Positions 1,440 to 62,958 of a stretch of 64,000 nucleotides of DNA are shown in pieces (the stretch's first letter is position 1; each line of letters begins with the position of its first letter). Source of the DNA: Eledone cirrhosa (taxonomy: Eukaryota). The translations under genes were made by a program, and so were the position numbers. The stretch covers positions 282,038,001 to 282,102,000 of the forward strand of contig OZ024743.1 of the NCBI GenBank assembly GCA_964016885.1, read 5' to 3'. Under the pieces are notes generated by a model, which was not told the DNA's origin, searched no databases, and worked only from the letters and a program-made list of their open reading frames with translations.

Positions 1440-1950
1440 GGGTTCAGAAACAAAGCAGGATCCAGCACCACAAGGGTAGAGTAGAAGAATGGTAGGTGAG
1501 GGAGAAAGGAAGGCAGGGGTTAAGGGGAATGTGAGGTCTATGGTCCAGTCACTTCATCCATGCTGGATGAAGTGAAAAGTTACGTGTTGGGATGGGGTCT
1601 TGAAGTCATGGTCCTGGTTGCAGAGCTGACAAAAATGAAAGAATTGGGAGTAAGGTGTGGAAAGTTTGGTGTGGGTGAGGTAGAAGGAGGTGAAATCAAG
1701 ATAGGTGTGGGAATCAGTAGGTTTGTAGAAGATGGGGGTAGGGAGGGTGTGGTGAGTGTGGTCAATAGAGAGATGTCGAGAAATTGAACAAAAGAATAAG
1801 AGATGGGGGAGAGCTAAGATGAAGGTAGGATGAAAAGACTGGACAAAGGAAAGAAAGGAGTCGAGTTGTTCACAGAAGAGAGATGTGACACTGATACAGT
1901 CGTCGATATAATGACTATATAGCTCAGGGGTTGGTCCAGTGTATTGGGAC
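1440..1950 (-). mobile_element. Degenerate Penelope-like element RT fragment
   Basis: Minus strand reads SQYTGPTPELYSHYIDDCISVTSL (YIDD catalytic motif); homologous to about 2910-3400 on the plus strand. Confidence 0.75.
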
Positions 1951-2089
1951 TGTTATTATTTATAGCTGTCGACTGATATATATATATATATATATATATA
2001 ATTTAATGTGCCTTTTTCCATGCTAACATGGGTTAGATGAGTTGTCCTGTTGTGAGACAACACACACACACAAATAAACAGTTCTTATT

Positions 2090-3700
2090 CACCTAAAGCT
2101 ATAAGCATTCTTCCACGACACATCATCATCAGCCCAAACAAACTGCTTCACAAGTTTCAGCTGCCGACAATCACAGTGGATGCCAAGCTCTGGACAATTC
2201 AGCACCCTTAATTCCTTTGTGGAGATTTGCTGATGTACTTTGAACCACTTTAATTTCAAAAAATATTCTCATTGTATCAACCTCACTCAAGCCAAGCTCT
2301 CCACTCTGCGCAGCCTACAGCGTCATAATGACATTGTCATCGAACCTGCAGATAAAGGTGGTGTCATGGTAGTGTGGTGTGCAGACCTCTACATGACTGA
2401 AGCCCTCTGCCAGCTTCACACACATCATCTACTTCCTCCCCAAGATACACAAACCTGATAACCTTGACCATTCTATTGTTTCTGCTTGTAACTGTCTTAC
2501 CAAAATATTCTCCCTATAACTTGACACCTTCATCGCCCCCACTAGTAATCGACTTCTTCTTCTACATCCACAACACTAATCATGCTCTTCAACTGTTTAA
2601 CTCCTTCTCCTACTCTTCTGGCCCCTCTTGCCTTCTCTTCACCCTGGACATCACCTCTTTCTACATCGTCATCCCTCATAATGATGGCCTCCACACTCTC
2701 CAGCACTTTTTGGACCTATGCCCTACACCCTACGATAGCACTTTCACTCTTGTCCATCTTGTTGAGCTCATTGTCACTCTCAATGGTTTTTCTTTTCCTT
2801 TTCCGGAGAGTTTTACTAACAGGTTTCTAAGGTGGCCATGGATACCAGAATGGACCCTAACTACACCAACTTGTTTGTTGGCTATGTTGAAGCCCTGATA
2901 TTCTCCAAGTACATGGATGCACCCCTGAGCTATAGTCATTACATTGATGATCGTATCGACACCACCTCTCTCTCCCTTGAACAGGTCGACGCTTTTCTTT
3001 CATCCAGTCTTTTCATCCTGCCCTCACCTTCACCACATCCATCTCCAACTCTTCTGTCCAGTTTCTTGACATCTCTCTCTCTATTGACTACCCTCACCAC
3101 ACACACTCTTCCTCCATCTTCAATAAGCTCACTGACTCCTATGCCACAGACACCTATCTCTCCATACAATGCTCCCAATTCTTCTGTTTTCATTGTCTCT
3201 GTAGCCAGGGCCACAATTTCGAGATCCAGTCCCAACACATGGCTTCCCACTTCATCCAGCATGGATATTCACCTACCTTGATCCAAGCTACCCTCACCTG
3301 CACCAATGAAACCAACCATACCACAGTCCTCTCACCCCCAACACAGCTACCCAACATATGCCTTCCTTTCTCCCTCGCCTACCACCCCTACCACCCTACC
3401 TCTCTGGTGCCATATCCGTCTTTGCTTCCACACCCTCTCCTCTGATGGCATCACTTCTCGCTTCTTTCGAAACCCACCCATCATTGCCTTTAAGTGTGCC
3501 CATAATCTCCACAACCGCTTGGTATGCAAGTCCCTCCCTTCCTCACCTAGGACTCCACCTGGCTTCCATCCTTGTTCTTGCCCCTGCTGTAACACCTAGC
3601 CCTTCATTTCTAGCCTCACCACTCTCACAGGCACTAATGGTTCTTTCCATATCTGCCACAAAGATGTTAATGCTTCTCACACCTCCTACTACTACTTCCG
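2090..3700 (+). mobile_element. Degenerate Penelope-like element (RT, linker, start of GIY-YIG domain), frameshifted
   Basis: PLE RT motifs IVIEPADKGGVMVVW, LFTLDITSFYIVIPHNDGL, VAMDTRMDPNYTNLFVG, YIDD, then the Cys-rich PCSCPCCNT. Confidence 0.85.
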
Positions 3701-3995
3701 ACTAGTAATGGCATGAACAGAAAGAAAAGATGACTCATACAAGCTAAAACATTTTATCTATTTTCCAAGGTTTTTGATTTCTGATGAGGAGATTTTATCT
3801 AAAAAATTAAGGTCGTATTTCAGTAAAGAACAGGTAACAGAGAGTAGCTTTCTTGCCCTCATTTACCTTAAATCGTACCACACCTTTTGCATTGTTGCAG
3901 CCTTCAAATTACATACCTTCTTATACTTAATGCACAATGCTTCAAGCTTAACTACAACACTCTCTATTATATATAAATACATATATATATATATC

Positions 3996-4599: not shown

Positions 4600-8090
<3,491 letters not shown>

Positions 8091-8095
<5 letters not shown>

Positions 8096-23090: not shown

Positions 23091-24937
23091 CTAGAAATTG
23101 TAAATGGAAAATTTAATCAAAAATACAATTGTAATCATCATCACCATCATCATCATCATTTTATGTTCACATTCCATGTTGGCATGGATTAGATGGGTCA
23201 GAGCCTAGATATATTTGAGAGACCTTATCTTGCTGATATGTTCTATATTTGACATGGTTTCTACAGCTGGATGCCCTTGCTAACACCAATCACCTTACTG
23301 GATGTATTGTGGCACCAGCACTGGAAATCCATTATCTAAATACAGAAATATCATCAACTCTGTATATTGATGTACTTTTCTGACTTGGTAGTAAGGTCCT
23401 ATATTTTAGGAAGAACAAAGATTGGAGGCTGTTTCATTAATGCCTGTCCAAAGACTATTAATCATTTTACAACCATATTTATAATAAAATAAACTCTATT
23501 TCATCAATTAATGAAGAATTTTGATTCACTAAAATTATTAATTATTTCATTATTTCATTACTAAGATAGTAACTTAATATATGGTTCTTACATAAAATTA
23601 TGTTGGAAGGTTTTAATTTAAATAGGGGCCCTTTCTAATGGTGGATTTGTTTCATTTAACCAGAACCAGTTTTGGCCATGTTGGTATTAAAACAGTTAAT
23701 GATATAGAAAAGAAAACACTGTGTCTTTTGCACCTGGAAAGTTCCTCTCCAAGGTGCAAGTCTGAGCAAGATGCTTTGTGAAAGACCAGCAGTCATCCAT
23801 ACATGCAAGTCTCCCCTCTCCATGCCACTTATATTATTTAAAGGAAAGGCAAAGGCTCATATTGCTTGGCATCAGGGTCGTCACAACACATATTTTTCAA
23901 TTGAGTGGACTGGAACAATGTGAAATAAAGTGTCTTTTTCAAGGGCGTGATGCACTGCCCAATCAGGGAACTGAACTCATGACTTTACAATTGTGATCCA
24001 AGGACCCTAACCACTAAGGCATACACCTTTACATTAATGGTATAAATGAAGTGAATTTGCCTCAAATGAGAATCAAAATTGTGTTGTGATCTTGAATTTT
24101 GGTGCCTTACTGTGTACAATATAATCCATAAAATCCTTCTGTTTTGAGCTTTCTTTGTAGTTTTACAACAGATTCTAGAATTATCACCAGAACATCAATA
24201 TCCAAAAGTTCTGAACTTTGGGATAATGATTTCTATCTTGAAATTCTGTGTAAGCTTTCACAAGAATTAGGATGAAGAAAGGAGGGCTCAGAATAGAACC
24301 TTGGATCACACACTCATATACTATACTAAATTATTTACTAAAATTACTGAAAAGGTAAACAAAATAGTTTTAAACATTATGTAGCATGTGTTAGGTTTGA
24401 TTCAATTAAATATATCTGTAGAAATGTATGGTTTGTGCTAAAGATTAACATCATATTAATCTAAGAATAGCAAACATAATGGAGCAAGAGAAAACCAGTT
24501 TTAACAGCGGGTCAAGGAGAAATAATGCCTTCCTCAATAAATTTATTACCTCATGTCTATAACTCAATAATTCCTGATTCACATATTTTAAGTCATCAAC
24601 ATTATAGACAAATTCTATTGACCAAACAATGAAAATTAACCCAAAGAAATTTGTTGAATCTCTTATTTGTCCATATCCATGAGCCAAATTGTAGAAATAT
24701 GAACTAATAGAATAAGAAATGTAAATAAAATTTGAACAAACACAAGGTCAAAGAGGCAAATAATGATATAGAGCTGCAGGCTACAAACAATGCAATGAAA
24801 ATTTTGACATCAAGGAATATATGATAAATGTAAAGTGAAGTTAACAATTTTTATGTGTTTTTGAATGGTTAAAATGTGACAGTTACACTGTAATCACTAA
24901 TAATATTGAGAAATAGAGAAAAGGAAAAAATGTTTAC

Positions 24938-25043
24938 ATATTCATTAAATATAAAGCATGGCCGTTTCAAGTTATTTTCATATCTACCCGAGATACAGAT
25001 TGTGCCATTAAGTTTTCCATAAACAGGTTTCCCATATGTATAG
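24938..25043 (-). CDS. A2M/TEP-like exon (MG3)
   Basis: tttag|...|gtaaac; YTYGKPVYGKLNGTICISGRYENNLKRPCFIFNEY (YTYGKPV motif); 106 nt, phase 2-0. Confidence 0.93.
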
Positions 25044-25429
25044 CTAAAAGAACAAAACAAAAACTAATTATTTAATCACATAATCTACTTTTAGAAATGT
25101 TGAGTAGATATGAATTTTAAAAAAATATGTTAGCTTCAAGTTATCAGCTTCAATGCAGGTTTTTAACTGCAAAAAATAGTTAAACAAAATGAAGCTGTTA
25201 GCTTTAATATATTTGCAAGTAAGTCAGATATTTTTTCAAAGAATTATCAGTTTTTCTATGTTTATTATTCCAAGCTGGCAATGGGTCGATGAAATATTTC
25301 TGACGTAGAAATCTATGACTAGATGTTCTTCCCGATGCCAACACTAACTTGTTTTTTCATGTAAGATATAGATCTTCATACATCTAACCACAGAGCTACT
25401 TTTGTTTTATGTGGAACATTAACAAACAT

Positions 25430-29851: not shown

Positions 29852-30732
29852 TAACAAGTTTCTCAAAACGAGTATCCAGTATAACCTTGCTTTTATTGTA
29901 GATCCATGTTACAAACGTGGTAAACAAATATCCTCGTGACATAACGAGGTATAATCCTGAACCATGAGATGGCGTTGAAAAAGGATTATATTGCTTGCGC
30001 TCAATGTGATTAGTTTGAGGAAAGCCGCCAAAAAGAGGAAGATGGATTTGAGTTCCCTCTTTTATAATCCCTTGACCGGAAGTTACAAGGAAGGTTCTAG
30101 AATTTCAATGGGAAGTAACTCTAGCTACTTCCCTTGTCTAGAGAGCGCTACAAGACTCCTCTCTCAGAGGAAAAGTCGAATAACCAATCGAAGATCATTG
30201 TAGCGAGAACCCATAAGAAATGAGGAGCAAAACAAAAGGTACAAGAAAATGAATGAATAAAAAAAAACATGAGCAAGCAAATAGCAAAAATGAGCATAAA
30301 ACAAGTAATGCATTTTACAAAGAATATGTTTGAATGTAACAATTGATAATGTAACAATTGATAAATCATAGTCAATACAAAAGAGCAGAGAAAATTGATG
30401 CTCAATGGTGAAATCAATGTTTTTCAAAGTCAAATAGTTCATCCATTACTAGTGTGCAGACTTTCTGACACTAGTTCTATCTGAAACTGAAAAAGAAGTT
30501 GTTAATGCCACTACGATGGCATAACGAGGCATAATCCTGAACCATGAGATGGCGTTGAAAAAGGATTATCATGCTTGCGCTCGATGTGATCAGTTTGAGG
30601 TAAGCCGCCAAAAAGAGGAAGATAGATTTGAGTTCCCTCTTTTATAATCCCTTGACCGGAAGTTACAAGGAAGGTTCTAGAATTTCAACGGGAAGTAACT
30701 CTAGCTACTTCCCTTGTCTAGAGAGTGCTACA
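29852..30732 (-). mobile_element. Small LTR-retroelement relic with 216-bp direct repeats (29937-30152, 30517-30732)
   Basis: The repeats are highly similar and start TGTAGC on the minus strand. A purine tract (gagagaggag) precedes the left copy, which continues through AATAAA. The 364-bp interior is non-coding; no TSD found. Confidence 0.6.
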
Positions 30733-31370: not shown

Positions 31371-34300
31371 CGGTGCGTACTCACACTCTATGCAAATTAG
31401 TCTGCCCACTACTAATTTTCATAGAAAAAGCATATAACGATATGTGCTTTTACAATTCTCCAGAAGGGCCGGTAGATAGGTAAATATTGCTGATGAGTTG
31501 TAACAACAACGAAACTAGTTCAATATTCCTTGTCTGGCCTTCTGGAGAATAGAGGGAAGGTGTTCCCTCAAAAACCAGTATGACTCTAAAAACCGGTTTG
31601 TCTGTGTGTTTACATACAGAATAGCTGGGTGCTCACAGTAAAGCAACCAGTGAAAGACTTGTTACATATACATATGTATACGTGTGTGTATTCATATACA
31701 CACTAGTATTTCAGTATGCATATGTAGATGTAATTTTTTTTAACTTAATTGTTTAAGCGTCAGTCATACAAAAGTGAGTTACAAACGAAACAAGATTTAA
31801 TTTCGTTTCGTTATTTGTTTTTATCGTCTCCGCTGAACCGGTGCGTACTCACACTCTATGCAAATTAGTCTGCCCACTACTAATTTTCATAGAAAAAGCA
31901 TATAACGATATGTGCTTTTACAATTCTCCAAAAGGGCCGGTAGATAGGTAAATATTGCTGATGAGTTGTAACAACAACGAAACTAGTTCAATATTCCTTG
32001 TCTGGCCTTCTGGAGAATAGAGGGAAGGTGTTCCCTCAAAAACCAGTATGACTCTAAAAACCGGTTTGTCTGTGTGTTTACATACAGAATAGCTGGGTGC
32101 TCACAGTAAAGCAACCAGTGAAAGACTTGTTACATATACATATGTATACGTGTGTGTATTCATATACACACTAGTATTTCAGTATGCATATGTAGATGTA
32201 ATTTTTTTTAACTTAATTGTTTAAGCGTCAGTCATACAAAAGTGAGTTACAAACGAAACGAGATTTAATTTCGTTTCGTTATTTGTTTTTATCGTCTCCG
32301 CTGAACCGGTGCGTACTCACACTCTATGCAAATTAGTCTGCCCACTACTAATTTTCATAGAAAAAGCATATAACGATATGTGCTTTTACAATTCTCCAGA
32401 AGGGTCGGTAGATAGGTAAATATTGCTGATGAGTTGTAACAACAACGAAACTAGTTCAATATTCCTTGTCTGGCCTTCTGGAGAATAGAGGGAAGGTGTT
32501 CCCTCAAAAACCAGTATGACTCTAAAAACCGGTTTGTCTGTGTGTTTACATACAGAATAGCTGGGTGCTCACAGTAAAGCAACCAGTGAAAGACTTGTTA
32601 CATATACATATGTATACGTGTGTGTATTCATATACACACTAGTATTTCAGTATGCATATGTAGATGTAATTTTTTTTAACTTAATTGTTTAAGCGTCAGT
32701 CATACAAAAGTGAGTTACAAACGAAACGAGATTTAATTTCGTTTCGTTATTTGTTTTTATCGTCTCCGCTGAACCGGTGCGTACTCACACTCTATGCAAA
32801 TTAGTCTGCCCACTACTAATTTTCATAGAAAAAGCATATAACGATATGTGCTTTTACAATTCTCCAGAAGGGCCGGTAGATAGGTAGATATTGCTGATGA
32901 GTTGTAACAACAACGAAACTAGTTCAATATTCCTTGTCTGGCCTTCTGGAGAATAGAGGGAAGGTGTTCCCTCAAAAACCAGTATGACTCTAAAAACCGG
33001 TTTGTCTGTGTGTTTACATACAGAATAGCTGGGTGCTCACAGTAAAGCAACCAGTGAAAGACTTGTTACATATACATATGTATACGTGTGTGTATTCATA
33101 TACACACTAGTATTTCAGTATGCATATGTAGATGTAATTTTTTTTAACTTAATTGTTTAAGCGTCAGTCATACAAAAGTGAGTTACAAACGAAACGAGAT
33201 TTAATTTCGTTTCGTTATTTGTTTTTATCGTCTCCGCTGAACCGGTGCGTACTCACACTCTATGCAAATTAGTCTGCCCACTACTAATTTTCATAGAAAA
33301 AGCATATAACGATATGTGCTTTTACAATTCTCCAGAAGGGCCGGTAGATAGGTAGATATTGCTGATGAGTTGTAACAACAACGAAACTAGTTCAATATTC
33401 CTTGTCTGGCCTTCTGGAGAATAGAGGGAAGGTGTTCCCTCAAAAACCAGTATGACTCTAAAAACCGGTTTGTCTGTGTGTTTACATACAGAATAGCTGG
33501 GTGCTCACAGTAAAGCAACCAGTGAAAGACTTGTTACATATACATATGTATACGTGTGTGTATTCATATACACACTAGTATTTCAGTATGCATATGTAGA
33601 TGTAATTTTTTTTAACTTAATTGTTTAAGCGTCAGTCATACAAAAGTGAGTTACAAACGAAACGAGATTTAATTTCGTTTCGTTATTTGTTTTTATCGTC
33701 TCCGCTGAACCGGTGCGTACTCACACTCTATGCAAATTAGTCTGCCCACTACTAATTTTCATAGAAAAAGCATATAACGATATGTGCTTTTACAATTCTC
33801 CAGAAGGGCCGGTAGATAGGTAGATATTGCTGATGAGTTGTAACAACAACGAAACTAGTTCAATATTCCTTGTCTGGCCTTCTGGAGAATAGAGGGAAGG
33901 TGTTCCCTCAAAAACCAGTATGACTCTAAAAACCGGTTTGTCTGTGTGTTTACATACAGAATAGCTGGGTGCTCACAGTAAAGCAACCAGTGAAAGACTT
34001 GTTACATATACATATGTATACGTGTGTGTATTCATATACACACTAGTATTTCAGTATGCATATGTAGATGTAATTTTTTTTAACTTAATTGTTTAAGCGT
34101 CAGTCATACAAAAGTGAGTTACAAACGAAACGAGATTTAATTTCGTTTCGTTATTTGTTTTTATCGTCTCCGCTGAACCGGTGCGTACTCACACTCTATG
34201 CAAATTAGTCTGCCCACTACTAATTTTCATAGAAAAAGCATATAACGATATGTGCTTTTACAATTCTCCAGAAGGGCCGGTAGATAGGTAGATATTGCTG

Positions 34301-35496
34301 ATGAGTTGTAACAACAACGAAACTAGTTCAATATTCCTTGTCTGGCCTTCTGGAGAATAGAGGGAAGGTGTTCCCTCAAAAACCAGTATGACTCTAAAAA
34401 CCGGTTTGTCTGTGTGTTTACATACAGAATAGCTGGGTGCTCACAGTAAAGCAACCAGTGAAAGACTTGTTACATATACATATGTATACGTGTGTGTATT
34501 CATATACACACTAGTATTTCAGTATGCATATGTAGATGTAATTTTTTTTAACTTAATTGTTTAAGCGTCAGTCATACAAAAGTGAGTTACAAACGAAACG
34601 AGATTTAATTTCGTTTCGTTATTTGTTTTTATCGTCTCCGCTGAACCGGTGCGTACTCACACTCTATGCAAATTAGTCTGCCCACTACTAATTTTCATAG
34701 AAAAAGCATATAACGATATGTGCTTTTACAATTCTCCAAAAGGGCCGGTAGATAGGTAAATATTGCTGATGAGTTGTAACAACAACGAAACTAGTTCAAT
34801 ATTCCTTGTCTGGCCTTCTGGAGAATAGAGGGAAGGTGTTCCCTCAAAAACCAGTATGACTCTAAAAACCGGTTTGTCTGTGTGTTTACATACAGAATAG
34901 CTGGGTGCTCACAGTAAAGCAACCAGTGAAAGACTTGTTACATATACATATGTATACGTGTGTGTATTCATATACACACTAGTATTTCAGTATGCATATG
35001 TAGATGTAATTTTTTTTAACTTAATTGTTTAAGCGTCAGTCATACAAAAGTGAGTTACAAACGAAACGAGATTTAATTTCGTTTCGTTATTTGTTTTTAT
35101 CGTCTCCGCTGAACCGGTGCGTACTCACACTCTATGCAAATTAGTCGGCCCACTACTAATTTTCATAGAAAAAGCATATAACGATATGTGCTTTTACAAT
35201 TCTCCAGAAGGGCCGGTAGATAGGTAAATATTGCTGATGAGTTGTAACAACAACGAAACTAGTTCAATATTCCTTGTCTGGCCCTCTAGAGAATAGAGGG
35301 AAGGTGTTCCCTCAAAAACCAGTATGACTCTAAAAACCGGTTTGTCTGTGTGTTTACATACAGAATAGCTGGGTGCTCACAGTAAAGCAACCAGTGAAAG
35401 ACTTGTTACATATACATATGTATACGTGTGTGTATTCATATACACACTAGTATTTCAGTATGCATATGTAGATGTAATTTTTTTTAACTTAATTGT
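31371..35496 (+). repeat. Tandem array of 468-bp hammerhead-containing units (8 full + 382 bp); candidate non-LTR retrozyme
   Basis: Units start at 31371, 31839, 32307, 32775, 33243, 33711, 34179, 34647 and 35115, with only a few substitutions between units; the ORF track lists no ORF here. Confidence 0.97.
31483..31527 (+). ncRNA. Type-I hammerhead ribozyme, copy 1 of 9 (others start at 31951, 32419, 32887, 33355, 33823, 34291, 34759, 35227)
   Basis: aatattg-CTGATGA-gttg-taacaa-caac-GAAA-C-ta-G-T-T^-caatatt: complete core, 7-bp stem I, 4-bp stem II with G10.1-C11.1, palindromic ACTAGT stem III. Stem I is extended by attctccagaagggccgg/ctggccttctggagaat (31455-31550). Predicted cut after 31520. 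Confidence 0.9.
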
Positions 35497-35658
35497 ATAA
35501 TTAAGTGGTATTCGTAAAATAACTTGTTAATATGTTCTTACACAAAACTCTTATGGAATTTTTTAAAGGTTTGTAACATATACTGAAAATAGTTTCAGAA
35601 AGGTATGTAAGGAGTCATCAAAAAGTTCACAAAATTTAGTGAATTAATTAAAGGTTAC

Positions 35659-41632: not shown

Positions 41633-42862
41633 TTAATTAACAATAAATAATAATAATAATTTCTACTTGGAAGTAAGTAATGCTTGTGTTGACATTAATT
41701 GTACCCAGTGATGGAAGAAATGAGAATTTGGTGAAACTGATGATATTATTTGTGGAGTTATATGTGGCATGCTGCAATTTGCAAGAAGAGTGACATTAGC
41801 TGAATGGAAAGGAACAGGGAGAGGATTCCCTTTCCTAGTGATGTTCCAGAAATATCAGGAGTGATATCATGTGAGCAGAAGGGGATCAGTACAAGGTCTC
41901 ACTTTGGTAGGTTATGGTTGTTAGCAAATGCATTTCATTGAGCTCTTATGGAACTTGGAATTTTCTCACTAGAATTTGGCTGAGTAGAGTTCATGGATTA
42001 CTTTATTAGATTAATAGTGATGTTTAGGACTGGCAAGGTAAGCGATTTTACATGTCCTATTTACATAGCTCCTTTGTGTTGATATTTCTAATGAATAGTG
42101 TTACAATCTCTGTGTTACAATCAATTTTCAGTATAATCAAGATTTTTTAAAAGTTTTAATTGTAACTTTTAATATTTAGATATATTGCACTGATGTTGAC
42201 AAACTGAAATCTTGTGTAATCATTCATGTTACAAGATTTGAATTTTGCATTAATGGATATTTTAAGATGGAGTGGTATTAAAAGGATTAAAAAATAAAGT
42301 ATGAAGGTTTAAGTTGTTGTTTAGCTCCAAGTTGGCTCTAATTGAGTAGACCTATGACCAAAAACATGCCAGTTGCAACCATCCTGTCTTTCTTTCTCTC
42401 TCTTTAAATATATCTTATATGTTCCTGTTTTAAAATAATAGGATGTAGTTAAAAGGAGATTTAGCTGCTTTGTCTAGCAAGTCAAATGACTACATAGGAA
42501 AGAAAGGAGTCTATCATTTTGCTGATACTATCTGCCAGTTGCAACTCTTGGCAAAAGAGGTGAGATTTGAACTCAAAATGCATGGAGCTGGATCAGATAC
42601 CACAAATCATCCCTCTGATTCTACAAAGCCCATGGACAGTTACTTTATTTATCAATTGCAAAAAAATAAAAGGCAAGGTTGACTTTGGCAGAATTTGGAC
42701 TCAAAGTACAGTAGGCATTTAATCTGATGCCCTAATGTCTCTACCAATTTGTCTATATAGAGGCACTCTCATTGGTTCATGGAGGGTTAGGTTATTTGAA
42801 GAGGGGTCTATTAATATGATAAACAACTTTTATGCACGGAACTGATCCAAAGTAAAACCTAC

Positions 42863-43057
42863 CTGTTTGACCAGGCTTGTAAATTGGTTTGTCAGGTTGC
42901 ACAAGAATCATCAGCTTGTTTTTATTTATCTTTATTCGATAACTGTCCCCAAATTTCACTGTTGAATTAGTTGAATTGAGTCCTTTCCCATTGATATTTA
43001 ACAAAGGGTTTTTTTTCCTTACAAAAGGAATGTAAAGGGAAAAACAAGGTTCATTTT
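42863..43057 (-). CDS. A2M/TEP-like exon (MG1-MG2)
   Basis: tttcag|...|gtaggt; ends ILVQPDKPIYKPGQT, the A2M-family F/LxQTDKPIYKPGQTV motif; 195 nt, phase 1-1. Confidence 0.93.
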
Positions 43058-45263
43058 CTGAAATAGAAAAATAAAGGATAATCAAATTAGTATGCTTAAT
43101 ATGAAGCATTGTGTGATATGTGGTTAGGATTGTTTTGGGAAAGTTAGTATAATGCAAATTAGAAATACAGGAGTGAAAATGAGAGTAAAGTAAGACAAAC
43201 AAAACAGTTTACACTTTTACCTTATATTTCATGATATATAACCCATGCTAGCGTGGAAGATGGACGTTAAACGAAGATGATGATGATGATGATGATATAT
43301 ATAATCATCATCATCATTTAACATCCATTTTACTTGCTTCTTAGACACTACTTCCACCATCACTGTGCAATCTCATTCAACCAAGGATCACCCTCACTTG
43401 TCATTACATTGTCAAACACCCACCACAATTTTCTTACATCCATCTCTCTCACACATCACCACTTGAACCCCTCCCACTATTGCTGGTACCACAATAAAAT
43501 GGATCCAGCACATTCTGTAAAGTGGTTGGAATTAGAAAGAGCTTCCAGCTGTAGCAACCATGCTAAAAATAGTTGAGAGGACTCTCCAGCCATGATACAA
43601 CAAAGTTTCTAGTGCTGGTGCCATGAAAAATGCATTCATTACACCTTGTATGATGGTTGGTGATAGTAAAGGCATCCAGCTGTAAAAACCATGCCAAAAT
43701 AGGTCAGGAGGACTCTTCAGTTTTGTCAAGGGCACGATAACCTCTCTGGTGTTGGCAATCTACAGAATAAATGCACCCAGTATAGTCTGTAATGTAGTTG
43801 GTTAAATGGAGGACTCTTCAGCTCTGTCAAAGAGATGACAACCGCTCAAGTGGTATGATAAAATTCACTCGGTAGAGTTCAAGAATGTAAGTGAGATACA
43901 GTCCCTCCACCCCTCTGAGAAGTCAGAATCTCCACTTAATTACTGACTTGGTCTGTGATGACCTATCTAACCCTTGCTATCAAGAAAAGGAACATTAAAT
44001 TATGATGATGATTTCATCGTGATCATGATAAGGATATATTGAAAATTACATTAACAATACATGTGCCTGTAGAAAACTCAACAACTTTACATACTAATTC
44101 AGTGAGCATGTAGTTGAGTTGATCTCGATCAAACAACTGAATATTCATTATTGAAACCCACAGAGATCCATTTACTTTACAATTAATGCAAAATTATTGT
44201 GGAACCAGAATTGTGAATAATATCTATATGGTGCAGTAATCTATATGCATAAAAATGTGTCTATCTCTAGACAAATGTGTTCCTTCTGTCTTTTTTCAGA
44301 TATGATACATCCTCTTTTAAGATAGTAGGGTTTGATTCGAGGGAAATTTGCCTGCTATTGCTTACAGGTCAAGCAACTGCTTAGAAGCTTCTTAACTGGT
44401 TCATAGTGCAGTTGTCCATGGTGTGTACAAGTGTTGTGTAGCTTTTATAGGTATGAAGTACCCTATTTTAACCCTTTAGCATTTATGCGAGTATGGGAAG
44501 CAAAGCCTTTACTGTGAAAATATAACAGTATATAATAGAGTAATGTAAATGCTAATGGGTTAAGTGGATTGTAGGATACGTTTTGTTGTTTAGCACCAGA
44601 TGAAATATAATCAAGAAGATCTGTGATCAAAGCTAGTACACTTGTATTTGTTCGATCTTTTTTTTAAAGCATATAGTATCTAGAACTACATTATTTTATG
44701 TATTTTTTTTTAAGATGGCAGAGTAGGATTTTAGAGATACTAGGCTGCTATTTCTAGTAGGTAAAGCAACCACATAAAGGTTCTGGCCTTTGAGATTTGA
44801 AGAAGAGAGAATAAAGGCCCAAGCAAATTTGCCAGAGTCTACAATTGATCTTATGTATCTGTAACTTTAAGATATTGTCAAGAGGGAAGCTTATTCTTCA
44901 CACTTGGCAACTTAAATTACAGTGTGAGACCAAACATACTGGTTAATAAACATATTAACTCTTAACGTTGTGATGATTTGGTAAGAAATATCTAAAAATA
45001 TGTTTGATAATTCAAATGTTTATAGTATCTTTACTAGTTGACTAGTCTTTGTGTAAATTTAAAGTATAAATTGAAATAAAAAATGTTCAAAGTTTCCAAA
45101 ATGTCTATATTGATGCCAAAGCATAGATTTCTACTACTATTCACATACATACAGTCTACCCCTACCTTCACATACACATATATGCAAACATAAAAAGAAA
45201 GAGTGTTGGCATGGGGAGAGAGAAAAAGAGACAAGATAAAATTAATTTTGATATATTACTTAC

Positions 45264-48039: not shown

Positions 48040-51000
48040 GGCGACCTACGTAGTAAATCGTATCATCGTGAGCTCCGCAAAGGTTTGTTATTTCCGTTTG
48101 TTAAAAATTGCCATTTATGGAAAATGTTATTGTTAACTGTTTATAAGCGCACATACATTGTTTTCTGAAAGGGACACCCAAAAAGATTGGGGCCTTGTGC
48201 CCAAAATTTAAACATTTATAATTATCAAAAACATTTCTTTGAAAAAAAAACATGGAAGTCTCACAGCCACACGAAGCTGACAGCCTTCCTCATAAACTAA
48301 CACCTCACACCGACACCACCATTGTAAATATTACTACATTTGCCAACACTAAAAATTTAATCAGTAGCAATATTTTTAATTTGTCTCAGGCAGACATTCA
48401 TTTCCCGCCATTACCAATGACTGCAGGTGTTAAAGCCGCCACCACCACCACTACCGCAACAACCACCACCACGACAACAGAAACAAAAGGAAAAAATAAA
48501 TCAACTCGTGATGTCGAAATGTTTTCAACCAAAATGGACTCTTCCACACTATAAAAAAACTGACGTCACCAACACCACAACTGAAACTAAAATTAATAAT
48601 AACAAAAATAACAATAACAACAACAGCAACAATGACATTAAAAAAACCACCCTGAGTTTTGCCAGAGTACCAAAACAGTGCGAAGCATTTACGGTAACTC
48701 AGGAGGAATTAGAAAATGCCAAAAAAATGGTAAAGAAAGATGGGTACGATGTGTACGCATCACCCAGCCGTCCGGGATCGGGGTAAGGAGTTGCTGTGCT
48801 TTTTCGGAGAGGTTTGGTTCTTGCCATACGAGCCATCTTCCTGGACCCAGAAGGTAAGTTGGTGGTGCTAGACGTGACCAGCGGAGACGGGCAAGCTTTC
48901 AGGCTAGTGGCCGTCTATGCCCCGACAGGAGCAGGGCGGCCTGATTTCTTCCGGCGTCTGGAGACCTTTCTTGGAACGTCCCGCTCTTTAGTGTTAGTGG
49001 GCAACTGGAACGGGATCTTAGCTGCACGCTGGGACTGTGTGGGATCAGCGGATAGGGGAGGAGGGTGCAAGAGCCTCACCAACTTGCTCAGGCGTTTTGA
49101 ACTGTCTGACAGGTACCGATTGGATTTCCCGAATGTGCCAATGTGGACTTGGACAAATCGCATAGGGTCATCCAGATCATATTTAGATAGAGTATTTTGT
49201 AGGGAAATAGATAGGTCTAGCATAGGCTGTCCACAATTCAAGATAGTCAGCTACACGGACCACAAATTCGTGATCTGTGTGCTTGACTTAGATAGGCTTC
49301 ATAGACGAGGACCCGGCTACTGGAAGCTGAACGCGTCCTTACCAGCGAACTAGTTAAGCGGGCTCTGAAAAGAGCAATTAGAATAGAGTCCATTAGGTTT
49401 AGTAAGGCTTTAGCAATAGAGAAAAATAGAGCAGAGGGAGAATTAGTTAAAAAATTAGACGAGGCGCTTAGCAAAGGCATCGCGACCGACGTACTTGCGG
49501 CGAAATTGGCCCTTGACCAATTCTTCAATGCAAAGTACGAAGGCTGCGTTGTCAGAGCTAGTGTGCGTGCTCTCAGACACGAGGGGACGAAAGCCATTCA
49601 ATGGGCCCGAGTGGCGGAGGCGCGTCGTGGCAACAAAGCCACGATCCGGTCTTTGGTGGACCACGACGGGCGCATGCTACTCGATCTCGGGCAAATGTGT
49701 GAAGCTTTTCAGCGACACTTCGCACAGCTGTTCGGAGGCAGCGGCGGGCCGGATCGAGGGATGGACTTTAGTGTTTACCTTGACGGACTGCCGCGGCTCT
49801 CGGCCACTGAGGCGGAGTGTTGCGAAAAGCCAATAACAGCCGCTGAAGTACGGGAGGCAATGACTGGCTGCACAAGGGGTAAATCGCCTGGTTTGGATGG
49901 TCTGCCCTATGAACTTTACGTAGAGATGCCAGACTTGTTCGGAGGCCTCTTGGCGGACGTCTACTGCAACTGGCAACAGAACGGGAGAATTCCCAGCTCT
50001 GTGAGCCGAGGAGCTGTGGCGCTGCTGAGAAAGGATCCGAACAAGGGGGATAACATAGATAATTTTAGGCCCATAACTCTGCTAAACACAGAGTTCAAGA
50101 TTTTGGCCAAGGTGCTAGCAAAGAGGTTGGCGCTTGTCGTTGGTGGTCTGGTGGGAGAGGCACAAACATGCGCCATTCCCGACAGATCCATCCACGACAA
50201 CCTCCACCTCATGCGATACATCGTAGAGAGGGTAGCTAGGGAACCTGGCACGGGTGGGTCTTTGATAAATTTAGATCAGTCGAAAGCTTTCGATAGGGTC
50301 GACCATCGTTACCTAGCGGCAGTCCTGAGGGCGGCTGGCTTTGGGCCCGTCTTCAGAGGCTGGATCGCTGCCATGCACAGAGACATCTGCTCTGTGGTGA
50401 GAGTGAACGATCACCTTTCGGAACCGTTCAACATCATGCGCTCGGTCCGCCAAGGATGTCCCCTCTCGTCCCTCTTGTACGTATTGACTCTCGAGCCCTT
50501 ACTGCACAAACTGGAGACGTTGAGGGGGGTCCCGCGCGAACTAGGATGCGGAAGATCCGTGTCAGCATATGCGGACGATGTCACCGTAGTGGTGTCGAAC
50601 GCCAAACACATCGAGGCAATCGGCACTACACTAAGAGAATACGAAGCGGTGACAGGAGCAATGATCAACCAGGAAGTCAGTGGGCCTGCAGCTCAGCACC
50701 TGGAGAGGCAGATCCATGCCGTCCAACAGCGTCGTCGGGCGCTGGACGGACGGACCGGTTAAATTGCTAGGGGTCTGGTTCGGTCCCGACCTCCAGACGG
50801 ACAAAAACTGGGACGAGGTGACGAGCAGGGTGGCTTCTCTCACCCAGAAATGGGCGGAGAGGAAGCTATCCCTGAAAGGTCGAGCGGAGGTGGCTAACGC
50901 GTACATCGCGTCCATCATCTACTACCGCCTGACCGTTGTACCTTGTCCTACGCCCCGCCTGACTGCGCTGGAGCGTTTGCTCTTTCGCTTTTTGTGGAAG

Positions 51001-60300: not shown

Positions 60301-62958
60301 AAACGAGTGCATGGGTGCGGCTTTTCAACAGCACTTTGCTCGATTGTTCGGAAGCAGCGGGCCAGATCGGAGTATGACTTTGGTGCATACCTCGACGGAC
60401 TGCCGTGGATCTCGACGACCGCAGCGCAGTGCTGCGAAAGGCCGATAACAGCCAATGAAATATGGGAAGCGATGTCTGACTGTACAAGGGGTAAATCGCC
60501 AGGTTTGGATAGTTTACCCTACGAGCTTAATGCATATATGCCAGACTTGTTTGGCGACCTCTTGGCAGATGTCTACTGTAACTGGCAGCAAAACAGAAGC
60601 ATTCCCAGTTTTGTGAGCCGGGGAGTGGTGGCGCTGCTGAGAAAAGACCCAAACAAAGGGGACGTTATAGACAACTTCAGGCCCATAACTCTGCTAAATG
60701 CAGAGTTTAAGATTTTGGCCAATGTGTTAGCAAAGAGGTTGGCGCTTGTCGTCGGTGATCTGGTGGGAGAGGCGCAGACATGCGCCATTCTGGACAGATC
60801 AATCCACGACAACCTCCCTCTCAACCTCCACATCATAAAGAGGGTGGTTAAGGAACCTGGCACGGGTGGGGCCCTGATCAACTTGGATCAATCTAAAGCA
60901 TTTGATAGGGTCGACCATCGGTACCTGGCTGCGGTCCTAAGGCGGCCGGCTTCGGGCCCGTTTTTAGGGGCTGGATCGCTGCGGTGCACAGCAACATCTG
61001 CTCAATTGTGAGGGTGAATGGTCACCTGTCACAACCTTTCAGCATCATGCGCTTGGTCCGCCAGGGTTGCCCCCTCTCGTCCTTCTTGTACGCACTGGCC
61101 CTCGAGCCGTTACTTCACAAGTTGGAGATGATGAGGGTGATCCCACGCGAACTGGGATGCGGGAGATTCGTGTCAGCTTACGCTGACGACGTCACCGTGG
61201 TGGTGTTGAGCACCAAACACGTCCAGATGCTCGGCACCGCTCTCAAGGAGTACAAAGCGGTGACAGGATCAAAGATAAACCAGGAAAAGTCGATGGACTT
61301 GCAACTCGGCACCTGGAGAGGCAAGTCCATGCCGCCCGACAGCGTCGTGCGGTGCTAGATGGAAGGACCGGTTAAATTGCTTGGGGTCTGGCTCGGTCCG
61401 GACCTCCAGATGGAAAAAAACTGGAGCGAGGTGACGAACAGGGTGGCCTCTTTCACCCAGAAATGGGCCGAGAGGAGGCTGTCTCTGAAAAGTCGGGCGG
61501 AGGTGGTGAATGCGCACATAACGTCCGTCATCTGCTACCGCCTGACCGTCGTACCTTGCCCCCACCCAGCTCTGACCAAAATGGAGCGCATTCTCTTCCG
61601 CTTTTTGTGGAAGGGACGAACTCCCATGGTCAGACGATCCATTTGCTGTCAACACCCGTTGCATGGAGGACTAGGCAGCCCGTGGCTGATGATACGCAAA
61701 CATGCGCTGAGGCTGCAACATCTCTGGTGCTCCTTGACTGTGAACAGGTGTGGTCGCGGGTTGCCAGACGCGCTTTTCCCCAGTTCGTCTCCTTGACGGA
61801 GCTGCAGTCCTGGAAAAGACTAAGGGATAGTGCTTGGAAGCTGGAATGTCTCCAAGCGCTCACCGCCCTCTACCAGCTGGGCACTAGTATTGGTGGAACA
61901 TCTACCTCGGTGTTCTATAGAGGGCTAGTGGAGGGAAAGAGCGACGACGTTCTCGGGGAGACCCTGGGCATCGAAGACGATCAGCTGTTCGCACTCTTCA
62001 AGAGAACTTTCAGACCGGGGCCTATGGACAACTTTCAGAAATCCCTGGCCTGGCTCTATAGGCACGGAGGTGCTGTCAGCCGAGCCTGTCCGAGATGTGC
62101 GCAGGGCAACAAAACCATGCTGCACGCACTCGTTCAGTGCCCGAGGATTGCTGACTTGTAGAGCTATGTCGAACAGCTGCTGTCGCGTGTAGGACGGATC
62201 CGGTTATCAACTGAGTCCATTGTGCAGAAAGCCCCGCCATCCTCCTTTAAAGAGGAGGAAGAGCAGGCAGTTTTCATCTGCCTGGTGACCATGGCGAAAG
62301 AGATTGTATGGTAAACAAGGTTGAAAGGGTTGAAGACGGACACTTACCTCTTCAGCGAATCTCTGATTAACTTTTTCAAGTTTCACTTGAAGAGGAAAAT
62401 CAGGGTGGAGAGGCAAGTGCTGTCTGCTAGCAAGTTTGTTGAAAGGTGGGTGAAAGTGGCGAGTCTGGTCCGAGTGAACGGGCCCGCTCTGAGTATGCGC
62501 CTGTAGACTGAGGAGTGGGAAAACTGAGAGAGGGCGCTTGCCCTGGTGGTCAGGGTGGCCGTGGTCTTTTGTGTGGTTTTCGCCACGAGTAACCCTCGGA
62601 GGTTTCCCCCCTATTGGGGAATTTTTCATTGTTTGAATTTTCATTTTTATTGTTTATATATATATATATATATATGTTTCTATGTCTTTTTTCTTTTTCT
62701 TTTCTTATATAAATAATAATTTCTAGTTTTGGCACAAGGCCAGCGATTACCCCAGTGCACCACTGGTACTTTATTTTATCGACCTCGTAAGGATGAAAGG
62801 CAAAGTTAACCTCGGCGGATTTGAACTCAGAACGCAAAGGGCCATAACTATTTGCGTTAAAATCTTTACACGCACAAAACCCACATCATACCGTCCTGTA
62901 CCGTCCTGTGCCGTCTGCAATGTTTTTCTTGATGTCAGCCCTTGTGGCCAATAAAGAA
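57353..62958 (+). mobile_element. Near full-length Tx1/L1 LINE family B (ORF1 + ORF2, disrupted)
   Basis: Asn/Thr-rich ORF1 with CCHC knuckle CYLCGQKGHLRAFC; ORF2 GNINVRGL...ISETR...GDWNG...YTDHK and RT AYADD; SINE inserted in the 3' UTR; (ATT)n on both sides. Confidence 0.93.

Follow-up and report, generated by a model that had tools for sequence, protein, structure and literature searches.

The closest described relatives of the repeat analysed here are the non-LTR retrozymes of animals, tandem non-coding units of low GC content reported from coral, mussel and axolotl, which each carry one type I hammerhead and are predicted to fold into a highly self-paired RNA that leaves the ribozyme free (PMC7229834). 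In the axolotl ribozyme HHR_Amex1, stem III consists of one pair and a palindromic tetraloop (PMC7229834). The proposal that Penelope-like elements (PLEs) carry retrozymes is based on their co-occurrence and on the similarity of terminal repeats, and it leaves the mechanism open (PMC7229834; 10.64898/2026.07.22.740005).

Insertions of PLEs, of the Hydra clade in particular, bear a signature: the tandem is accompanied by an inverted 5′-truncated copy, only one end has a tail, and the target is AT-rich or (TA)n; the hammerhead of these elements has a palindromic stem III (PMC8557442; PMC11167929). The tail, usually 30–40 nt long (PMC8557442), reflects reverse transcription from two internal start sites (PMC11167929). 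Promoters located inside a hammerhead repeat, by which each unit can drive the next, are reported for newt satellite 2, with a polymerase II promoter of the snRNA type (PMC2220036), and for Schistosoma Sm-alpha, with a polymerase III promoter (PMC6765202).

The window, that is, the whole stretch of 64,000 nt of the Eledone cirrhosa genome that was analysed, contains an array of 468-nt units, the family of which shares the listed traits of the animal retrozymes, the axolotl type of stem III included, and the insertion signature, targets and palindromic stem III of the PLEs. We consider it probable that this hammerhead repeat with its family-conserved fold is a non-LTR retrozyme, the RNA of which is cut, circularised and recopied by a Penelope-like enzyme. 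The unit is unlike metazoan retrozymes in that 468 nt exceeds their range of 150–450 bp (PMC7229834), being within the 51–972 bp given in 10.64898/2026.07.22.740005, and in that the available text of PMC7229834 mentions neither head-to-head insertions with two fixed ends in (TA)n nor an internal U6-like element nor covariation beyond the ribozyme. Circles and cleavage were shown there, whereas here both are predicted. The openly accessible papers that were searched provided no account of these three features in a retrozyme, nor of cephalopod retrozymes. Animal retrozymes are already known; added here are comparative evidence for selection on the fold of the whole unit, the mapping of two putative start sites, of which each insertion end uses one, and a possible promoter inside the unit.

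The 468-nt unit, its hammerhead and its family

The 468-nt unit of the initial annotation is repeated 8.8 times between 31371 and 35500. The units are 99% alike, with the eight complete ones differing from unit 3 at 1–2 positions each, and the helix arm quoted in that annotation as aacgaaacgaga reads aacgaaacaaga in unit 1 and, as quoted, agrees with units 2–8. The GC content of 171/468 (36.5%) lies below 50%, and the sole frame repeating in each unit, 60 codons on the minus strand, has no Pfam match; the open frame with reverse transcriptase (RT) and GIY-YIG domains of an autonomous Penelope-like element is absent from the unit. No (TA)n run is found 3′ of the window array. Target-site duplications of non-LTR retrozymes, when present, are longer than 4 bp; none was seen by eye at the window insertion, and most other insertions lie in (TA)n, where a duplication is unreadable. 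The 468-nt repeat is a young copy of a very abundant protein-free mobile element. Contigs from four of six sequencing runs demonstrate its presence only.

The hammerhead is matched by Rfam HH9 with an E value of 7.7e-8 and 38.2 bits, below the 52-bit cut-off, and at gathering thresholds Rfam has no match anywhere in the window. It is found on the plus strand only, and its core recurs in all nine units at a spacing of 468 nt. Cleavage is predicted after position 31520, so that the natural monomer extends from 31521 to 31988, and the triplet at the site is GUU in the window subfamily, which is less usual, and GUC or GUA in other subfamilies. Two complete hammerheads result, with a penalty of +1.6 kcal/mol, when the palindromes of two units are constrained to pair over all six bases, and the unit is likely a non-LTR retrozyme with a hammerhead of the dimer type. 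For Xenopus, a preprint reports no cleavage in vitro for eight of nine retrozyme dimers.

In the 3.0-Gb genome, exact core matches amount to 9,494 (control 0) and matches to the core pattern of a related family to 14,122 (control 2), and 185 scored matches to the unit are spread over many contigs. The loci sampled contained 294 monomers (124 distinct), which fall into 14 clusters and two groups. Monomers of group A are 466–470 nt long, with clusters 87–95% alike; those of group B measure 426–502 nt and are about 60–64% alike to A and collinear with it.

With respect to its surroundings, the array lies probably antisense in an intron of a gene for a thioester protein or of alpha-2-macroglobulin type. 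Positions 24869–25063 of the window (minus strand) match the Macroglobulin MG3 domain (E 8e-5), and a minus-strand frame at 42792–43208, which has no Pfam match, contains what we take to be an MG2-like motif. Just upstream of the array lies a direct duplication of about 210 bases (29940–30150 and 30515–30730, about 575 bases apart), and positions 4603–8091 are occupied by a 3.5-kb tract of (TA)n type, the kind of target used by these elements. Decayed Penelope-like RT fragments of opposite orientation are present at 1554–1952 (minus strand) and 2401–3705 (plus strand), and relatives of these elsewhere in the genome have long open frames and a minimal hammerhead of their own. Stretches within LINE-like frames fold unusually well (62001–62468 with a folding z of −7.0, 49501–49968 with −4.4; 12 shuffles each).

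Table 1. Features of the array and of its first unit (window positions)
Feature	Position	Strand	Remarks
Retrozyme array, 8.8 units of 468 nt	31371..35500	+	one-directional insertion, arbitrarily truncated on the 5′ side; the 3′ end coincides with the short fixed site of the family
U6-like element	31388..31406	+	match to the host U6 upstream element; also 5′ arm of a conserved helix
TATA-like box	31432..31437	+	42–43 nt after the U6-like element, 41–44 nt in the 7/7 units examined; 46–48 nt in U6 genes
Type I hammerhead	31472..31543	+	extended stem I; core from 31490; A-rich loop on stem II
Stem III palindrome, six bases	31514..31519	+	in a single unit one pair with a palindromic tetraloop; six pairs when two units meet
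Predicted monomer RNA between successive cleavage sites	31521..31988	+	branched fold, 16 predicted helices; ends brought together at hammerhead stem I
Multibranch domain	31578..31769	+	closed by 8-bp long-range helix, 31578-31585 with 31762-31769 (helices 5, 7, 8, 9)
Short fixed 3′ end	31750..31756	+	unit positions 380–386; in and beside a weak hairpin
Helix 10, annotated initially as the junction helix	31774-31779 with 31847-31852	+	internal to monomer; kept in family B
Long fixed 3′ end	31819..31826	+	unit positions 449–456, mostly 454; end of a U-rich unpaired stretch

The predicted RNA fold and its conservation

Initially the unit had been described as almost fully base-paired in a viroid-like fold that closes across the unit junction, a description of an RNA fold that is real but was overstated. 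The folding energy stands out from shuffled sequences as had been anticipated, with −153.4 kcal/mol for the circular fold (z −10.2, 60 shuffles) and −159.4 kcal/mol for the linear fold of 31371–31838 (z −11.3), which none of 100 shuffles equalled in stability; upon omission of the TA/TG-rich hairpin z is still −7.4. A low folding z alone is, on the other hand, no proof, as the minus strand of the unit also folds well (z −8.1 and −9.5) and, among 18 background stretches taken from the window (mean z −1.0, 12 shuffles each), one is at −7.0.

Paired bases amount to 68%, compared with a shuffle mean of 60–61% and a maximum of 65–67%, and thus not to almost all. Ten of the eleven helices named in the initial annotation come near their full expected pairs in the circular monomer, the exception being gctgg/ccagt with 0.4 of 5 pairs, and G.U pairs make up 14 of 160 pairs on the plus and 4 of 153 on the minus strand. 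The unit junction is only the point of 5′ truncation of the window insertion, and the gtgagt/actcac helix, although indeed predicted, resides inside the ribozyme-cut monomer and not across that junction. Viroid-like applies to the shape, but the element is genome-encoded and has a hammerhead on one strand only. A covalent circle follows neither from the fold nor from the supposed junction helix; as the circular fold of the monomer 31521–31988 (−148.7) is no more stable than the linear one (−153.0), closure is deduced from the retrozyme class, the members of which form circles (PMC7229834), and by this analogy a stable covalently closed form is plausible.

The helices were tabulated on the like monomer 32925–33392. 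Three pairs of the 8-bp helix that closes the multibranch domain are altered on both sides between the families, and a 20-bp TA/TG-rich helix is located inside the domain. MicroRNA-type matches under the TA-rich hairpin remained far below the cut-off and were discarded.

The clearest sign of selection at the stage when an RNA founds new copies is the contrast between private and inherited changes. Paired sites constitute 48% of the unit. In 24 young loci, 63 of the 118 private mutations fall on such sites, but of the 56 substitutions with respect to the most distant A subfamily only 12 do (Fisher p 7e-5), and the private mutations at paired sites keep the pair in 19 of 63 cases. Conservation of pairing was assessed on sequence-only alignments with a set of 112 pairs of probability >0.8, derived from one window monomer alone. 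Among the six subfamily copies compared, the five more distant ones keep 71–100% of the altered pairs (null 32–61%), and in the closest copy (L060) pair retention is not significant (p 0.24).

Family B, at about 62% identity, retains 72 of 91 ungapped pairs, where the null gives 51 ± 4 with a maximum of 63 in 2,000, and 13 of the kept pairs are altered on both sides (null 6.0, maximum 18); three further B copies retain 65, 65 and 68 pairs (null 46–52). When A and B were folded separately, 45 of 155 A pairs had an exact B counterpart and 84 had one within two columns. In a 14-row alignment 89.4% of the cells pair, as compared with 84.6% in shuffles (0/500 as high) and 30–50% in slid controls, and 19 of the 112 pairs, 13 of them outside the ribozyme, are altered on both sides, a count which, with related rows, does not represent independent events. 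On the same alignment further pair types number 53, fewer than the 62 in shuffles, and helices 3, 6, 13 and 14 have no both-side change or are shifted in family B.

The claim of the initial annotation that selection acts at the RNA level rather than on a satellite DNA is backed by these comparative pairing tests together with the dispersal of the unit as a retroelement. The comparisons support the view that the whole unit, beyond the ribozyme, would be selected as a folded RNA, and the fold would be kept because only properly folding RNAs found new insertions.

Insertion layout and Penelope-like elements

Sixty-three loci, composed of the 38 best matches, the 24 core-match places listed first and the window, contained 66 delimited insertions, of which three cut by the locus edge and one nested were set aside, leaving 62. 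In 43 of these an inverted 5′-truncated copy is joined head-to-head to the tandem; the window copy is one-directional. One outer end at unit position 449–456 and the other at 378–387 are found in 38 of the 43 head-to-head insertions, and none of the 43 has two ends of one kind. All 19 one-directional insertions, including that of the window, end at one of the two fixed sites, and (TA)n adjoins 93 of the 102 ends at fixed sites. Family B displays a like layout, with ends near 290 and 223–233 after cleavage (by eye; three of the 25 loci overlap). By eye, the 5′ ends of insertions do not evidently cluster at the predicted transcription start or cleavage site. Three independent insertions (window 31371, L042 and L054) have their 5′ end at one common unit position, which is not significant by a rough multiple-testing estimate.

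The two fixed sites are about 70 nt apart and the tail measures 69–74 nt, by which, as by the lack of an open frame, the unit is unlike the PLEs described (PMC8557442; PMC11167929). The short and the long fixed ends are, we infer, the two places where reverse transcription starts. The host contains young PLE families, the open frames of which measure 713–784 codons, and two of these families end at two fixed sites in (TA)n, 88 and about 110 nt apart. A 778-codon frame shows the RWK, DKT and CxCX5C motifs of the Hydra clade (compared by eye with PMC8557442), an assignment that rests on motifs read by eye because Pfam recognised neither of the two Hydra-like frames tested. The unit has no DNA similarity to three Hydra-like host families, with a fourth compared in part only. 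Penelope-type enzymes likely paste the unit back into the genome.

Among the Hydra-like PLEs, the one at L236 (566–690) possesses, by eye, a hammerhead with a very long insert in stem II, a 10-base palindromic stem III and GUU. In a second family (L246, minus strand, 5′ of the frame), which ends at two fixed sites 88 nt from each other, the core of a hammerhead-like motif departs from the standard. The retrozyme (31744–31756) and the PLE families L236, L246 and L256 have at one fixed end an AT-rich motif similar to TAACT(T)AAT, either by chance or as a common signal for priming.

Candidate promoter, template and proposed life cycle

Upstream of three host U6 loci, each on another contig, a common element is located at −76 to −78 and a TATA box follows at −30; in two further U6 hits the element is absent from this place. 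The matrix built from these three sites only, which contains the common octamer, gives the unit a score of 19.5, compared with 14.8–16.9 for the U6 sites themselves upon leave-one-out, a maximum of 14.1 in 100 shuffles and 0 of 119,364 background positions at ≥15. The element of the unit is identical to one U6 locus at 17 of 20 bases and occurs in all seven subfamily copies examined. Each unit holds a candidate internal U6-type promoter, from which transcription would start at about 31462–31467, in the 5′ arm of the extended stem I and about 55–58 nt before the cut.

U6-type transcription goes with the absence of long T runs, and the unit of the window subfamily contains a T8 and a T5 run; U8 and U5 would be expected to stop polymerase III. 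A further departure from the U6 genes is that the TATA-like box lies closer to the element. Compared with the newt and Schistosoma repeats (PMC2220036; PMC6765202), the putative promoter matches the host U6 element and not the U1 or U2 element, the upstream element of U1/U2 having no match in the unit. In the host (L260–L324), U1 and U2 genes carry a TCAGT-containing element near −57, U6 genes the octamer-containing element at −77, and all three share a C/T-rich element at −254 to −284.

The reading considered probable connects what is observed, namely the ribozyme motif, the dispersal, the pairing conservation, the insertion layout and the U6-like element, as follows. The array would be transcribed throughout, with the internal U6-like element and TATA box as possible start signals, and two neighbouring ribozymes paired via the palindromic stem III would cleave the transcript, whereupon the monomer ends, held by stem I, would be ligated by a host ligase as for other retrozymes. 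A Penelope-like protein, probably of the Hydra clade, would cut both strands of (TA)n DNA, and each cut end would serve as primer at one or other of the two fixed sites on the RNA, which are separated by about 70 nt. Copying round the circle would produce two head-to-head strings of units, of which the window array would represent the one-armed case.

As for the template, units differ less within an insertion (4.3 sites) than between insertions (8.4), and private variants are fixed in all units and both arms of L108, L061, L067 and L044, with three private A>G changes of L108 in all 18–19 covering units of both arms. Such shared private changes fit one short template copied repeatedly; a homogeneous multimer fits too. 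Of the rare variants, most (145) occur in one arm only and 18 in both, which counts against the favoured reading. Among insertion-wide variants 13 of 38 are A>G, each of the 13 being located in a helix, as compared with 16 of 225 among variants of single units (p 2e-5). Scars of RNA editing were considered, but A>G and T>C stand 13 to 8 (p 0.28), and editing is thus indistinguishable from selection for A-U to G.U changes.

The same element and enzyme might do without a circle if a linear transcript of several units, left uncleaved and perhaps terminated at the U-run by the long fixed end, served as the template. We regard this as rather unlikely: the fixed private variants common to both arms fit a short template copied repeatedly, arrays reach 15 to about 30 units and related retrozymes are described as mostly circular in vivo (PMC7229834), although a T4–T6 run near the long end in every subfamily examined, variants in subsets of units in some long arrays, the circular fold being no more stable than the linear one, and the finding that the PLE protein of Anolis acts mainly on uncleaved RNA (PMC11167929) speak for it. 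That the unit is instead a satellite DNA with inherited hairpins, propagated by recombination at the DNA level, with the fold as a by-product of AT-rich inverted repeats, is extremely improbable. The background stretch at z −7.0, the minus strand folding almost as well and variants common to the neighbouring units 4–7, suggestive of local amplification, would agree with it, but a catalytic core conserved on one strand, dispersal over many contigs, 3′ ends that are fixed where 5′ ends vary and the contrast between private and inherited mutations do not, and the pairing-conservation tests together with the insertion layout largely refute it.

Products of LINEs are known to be 5′-truncated and inverted, and several LINE-type RT frames are located in the window, which is what an ordinary LINE copying the unit, with inversions from twin priming, could build on. 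This is nevertheless very unlikely, as the two outer ends lie at fixed sites inside the unit, each at a different one, no LINE-like tail was seen and the end pattern matches the tail signature of PLEs (PMC8557442; PMC11167929) and of the host PLEs. An endogenised viroid-like replicon, the circle of which would also replicate from RNA to RNA, would account for the branched fold and the well-folding minus strand. Branched hammerhead viroids and viroid-like RNAs resemble the unit in size, branched fold and hammerhead. Replication from RNA to RNA has also been raised as a possibility for mussel retrozymes (PMC7229834). Hammerhead viroids have the ribozyme in both polarities and no DNA stage, whereas the unit is genome-encoded in thousands of DNA copies, which account for the RNA without replication, and has its hammerhead on the plus strand only; the replicon is extremely improbable.

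Within the favoured reading, that of a retrozyme recopied by a Penelope-like enzyme, a more elaborate proposition is tentative and on balance somewhat doubtful: a self-contained circular-RNA mobile element with U6-type promoter, dimer ribozyme, a fold kept over about 38% divergence and two priming sites, in which one circle is copied from both ends of a (TA)n break. Fold selection, the mapped start sites and the candidate promoter make the retrozyme life cycle testable. If true, the circular-RNA mobile element would prove from genomic data that a circular RNA of an animal is reverse-transcribed in rolling-circle fashion, and would provide a ready substrate for the Penelope mechanism.
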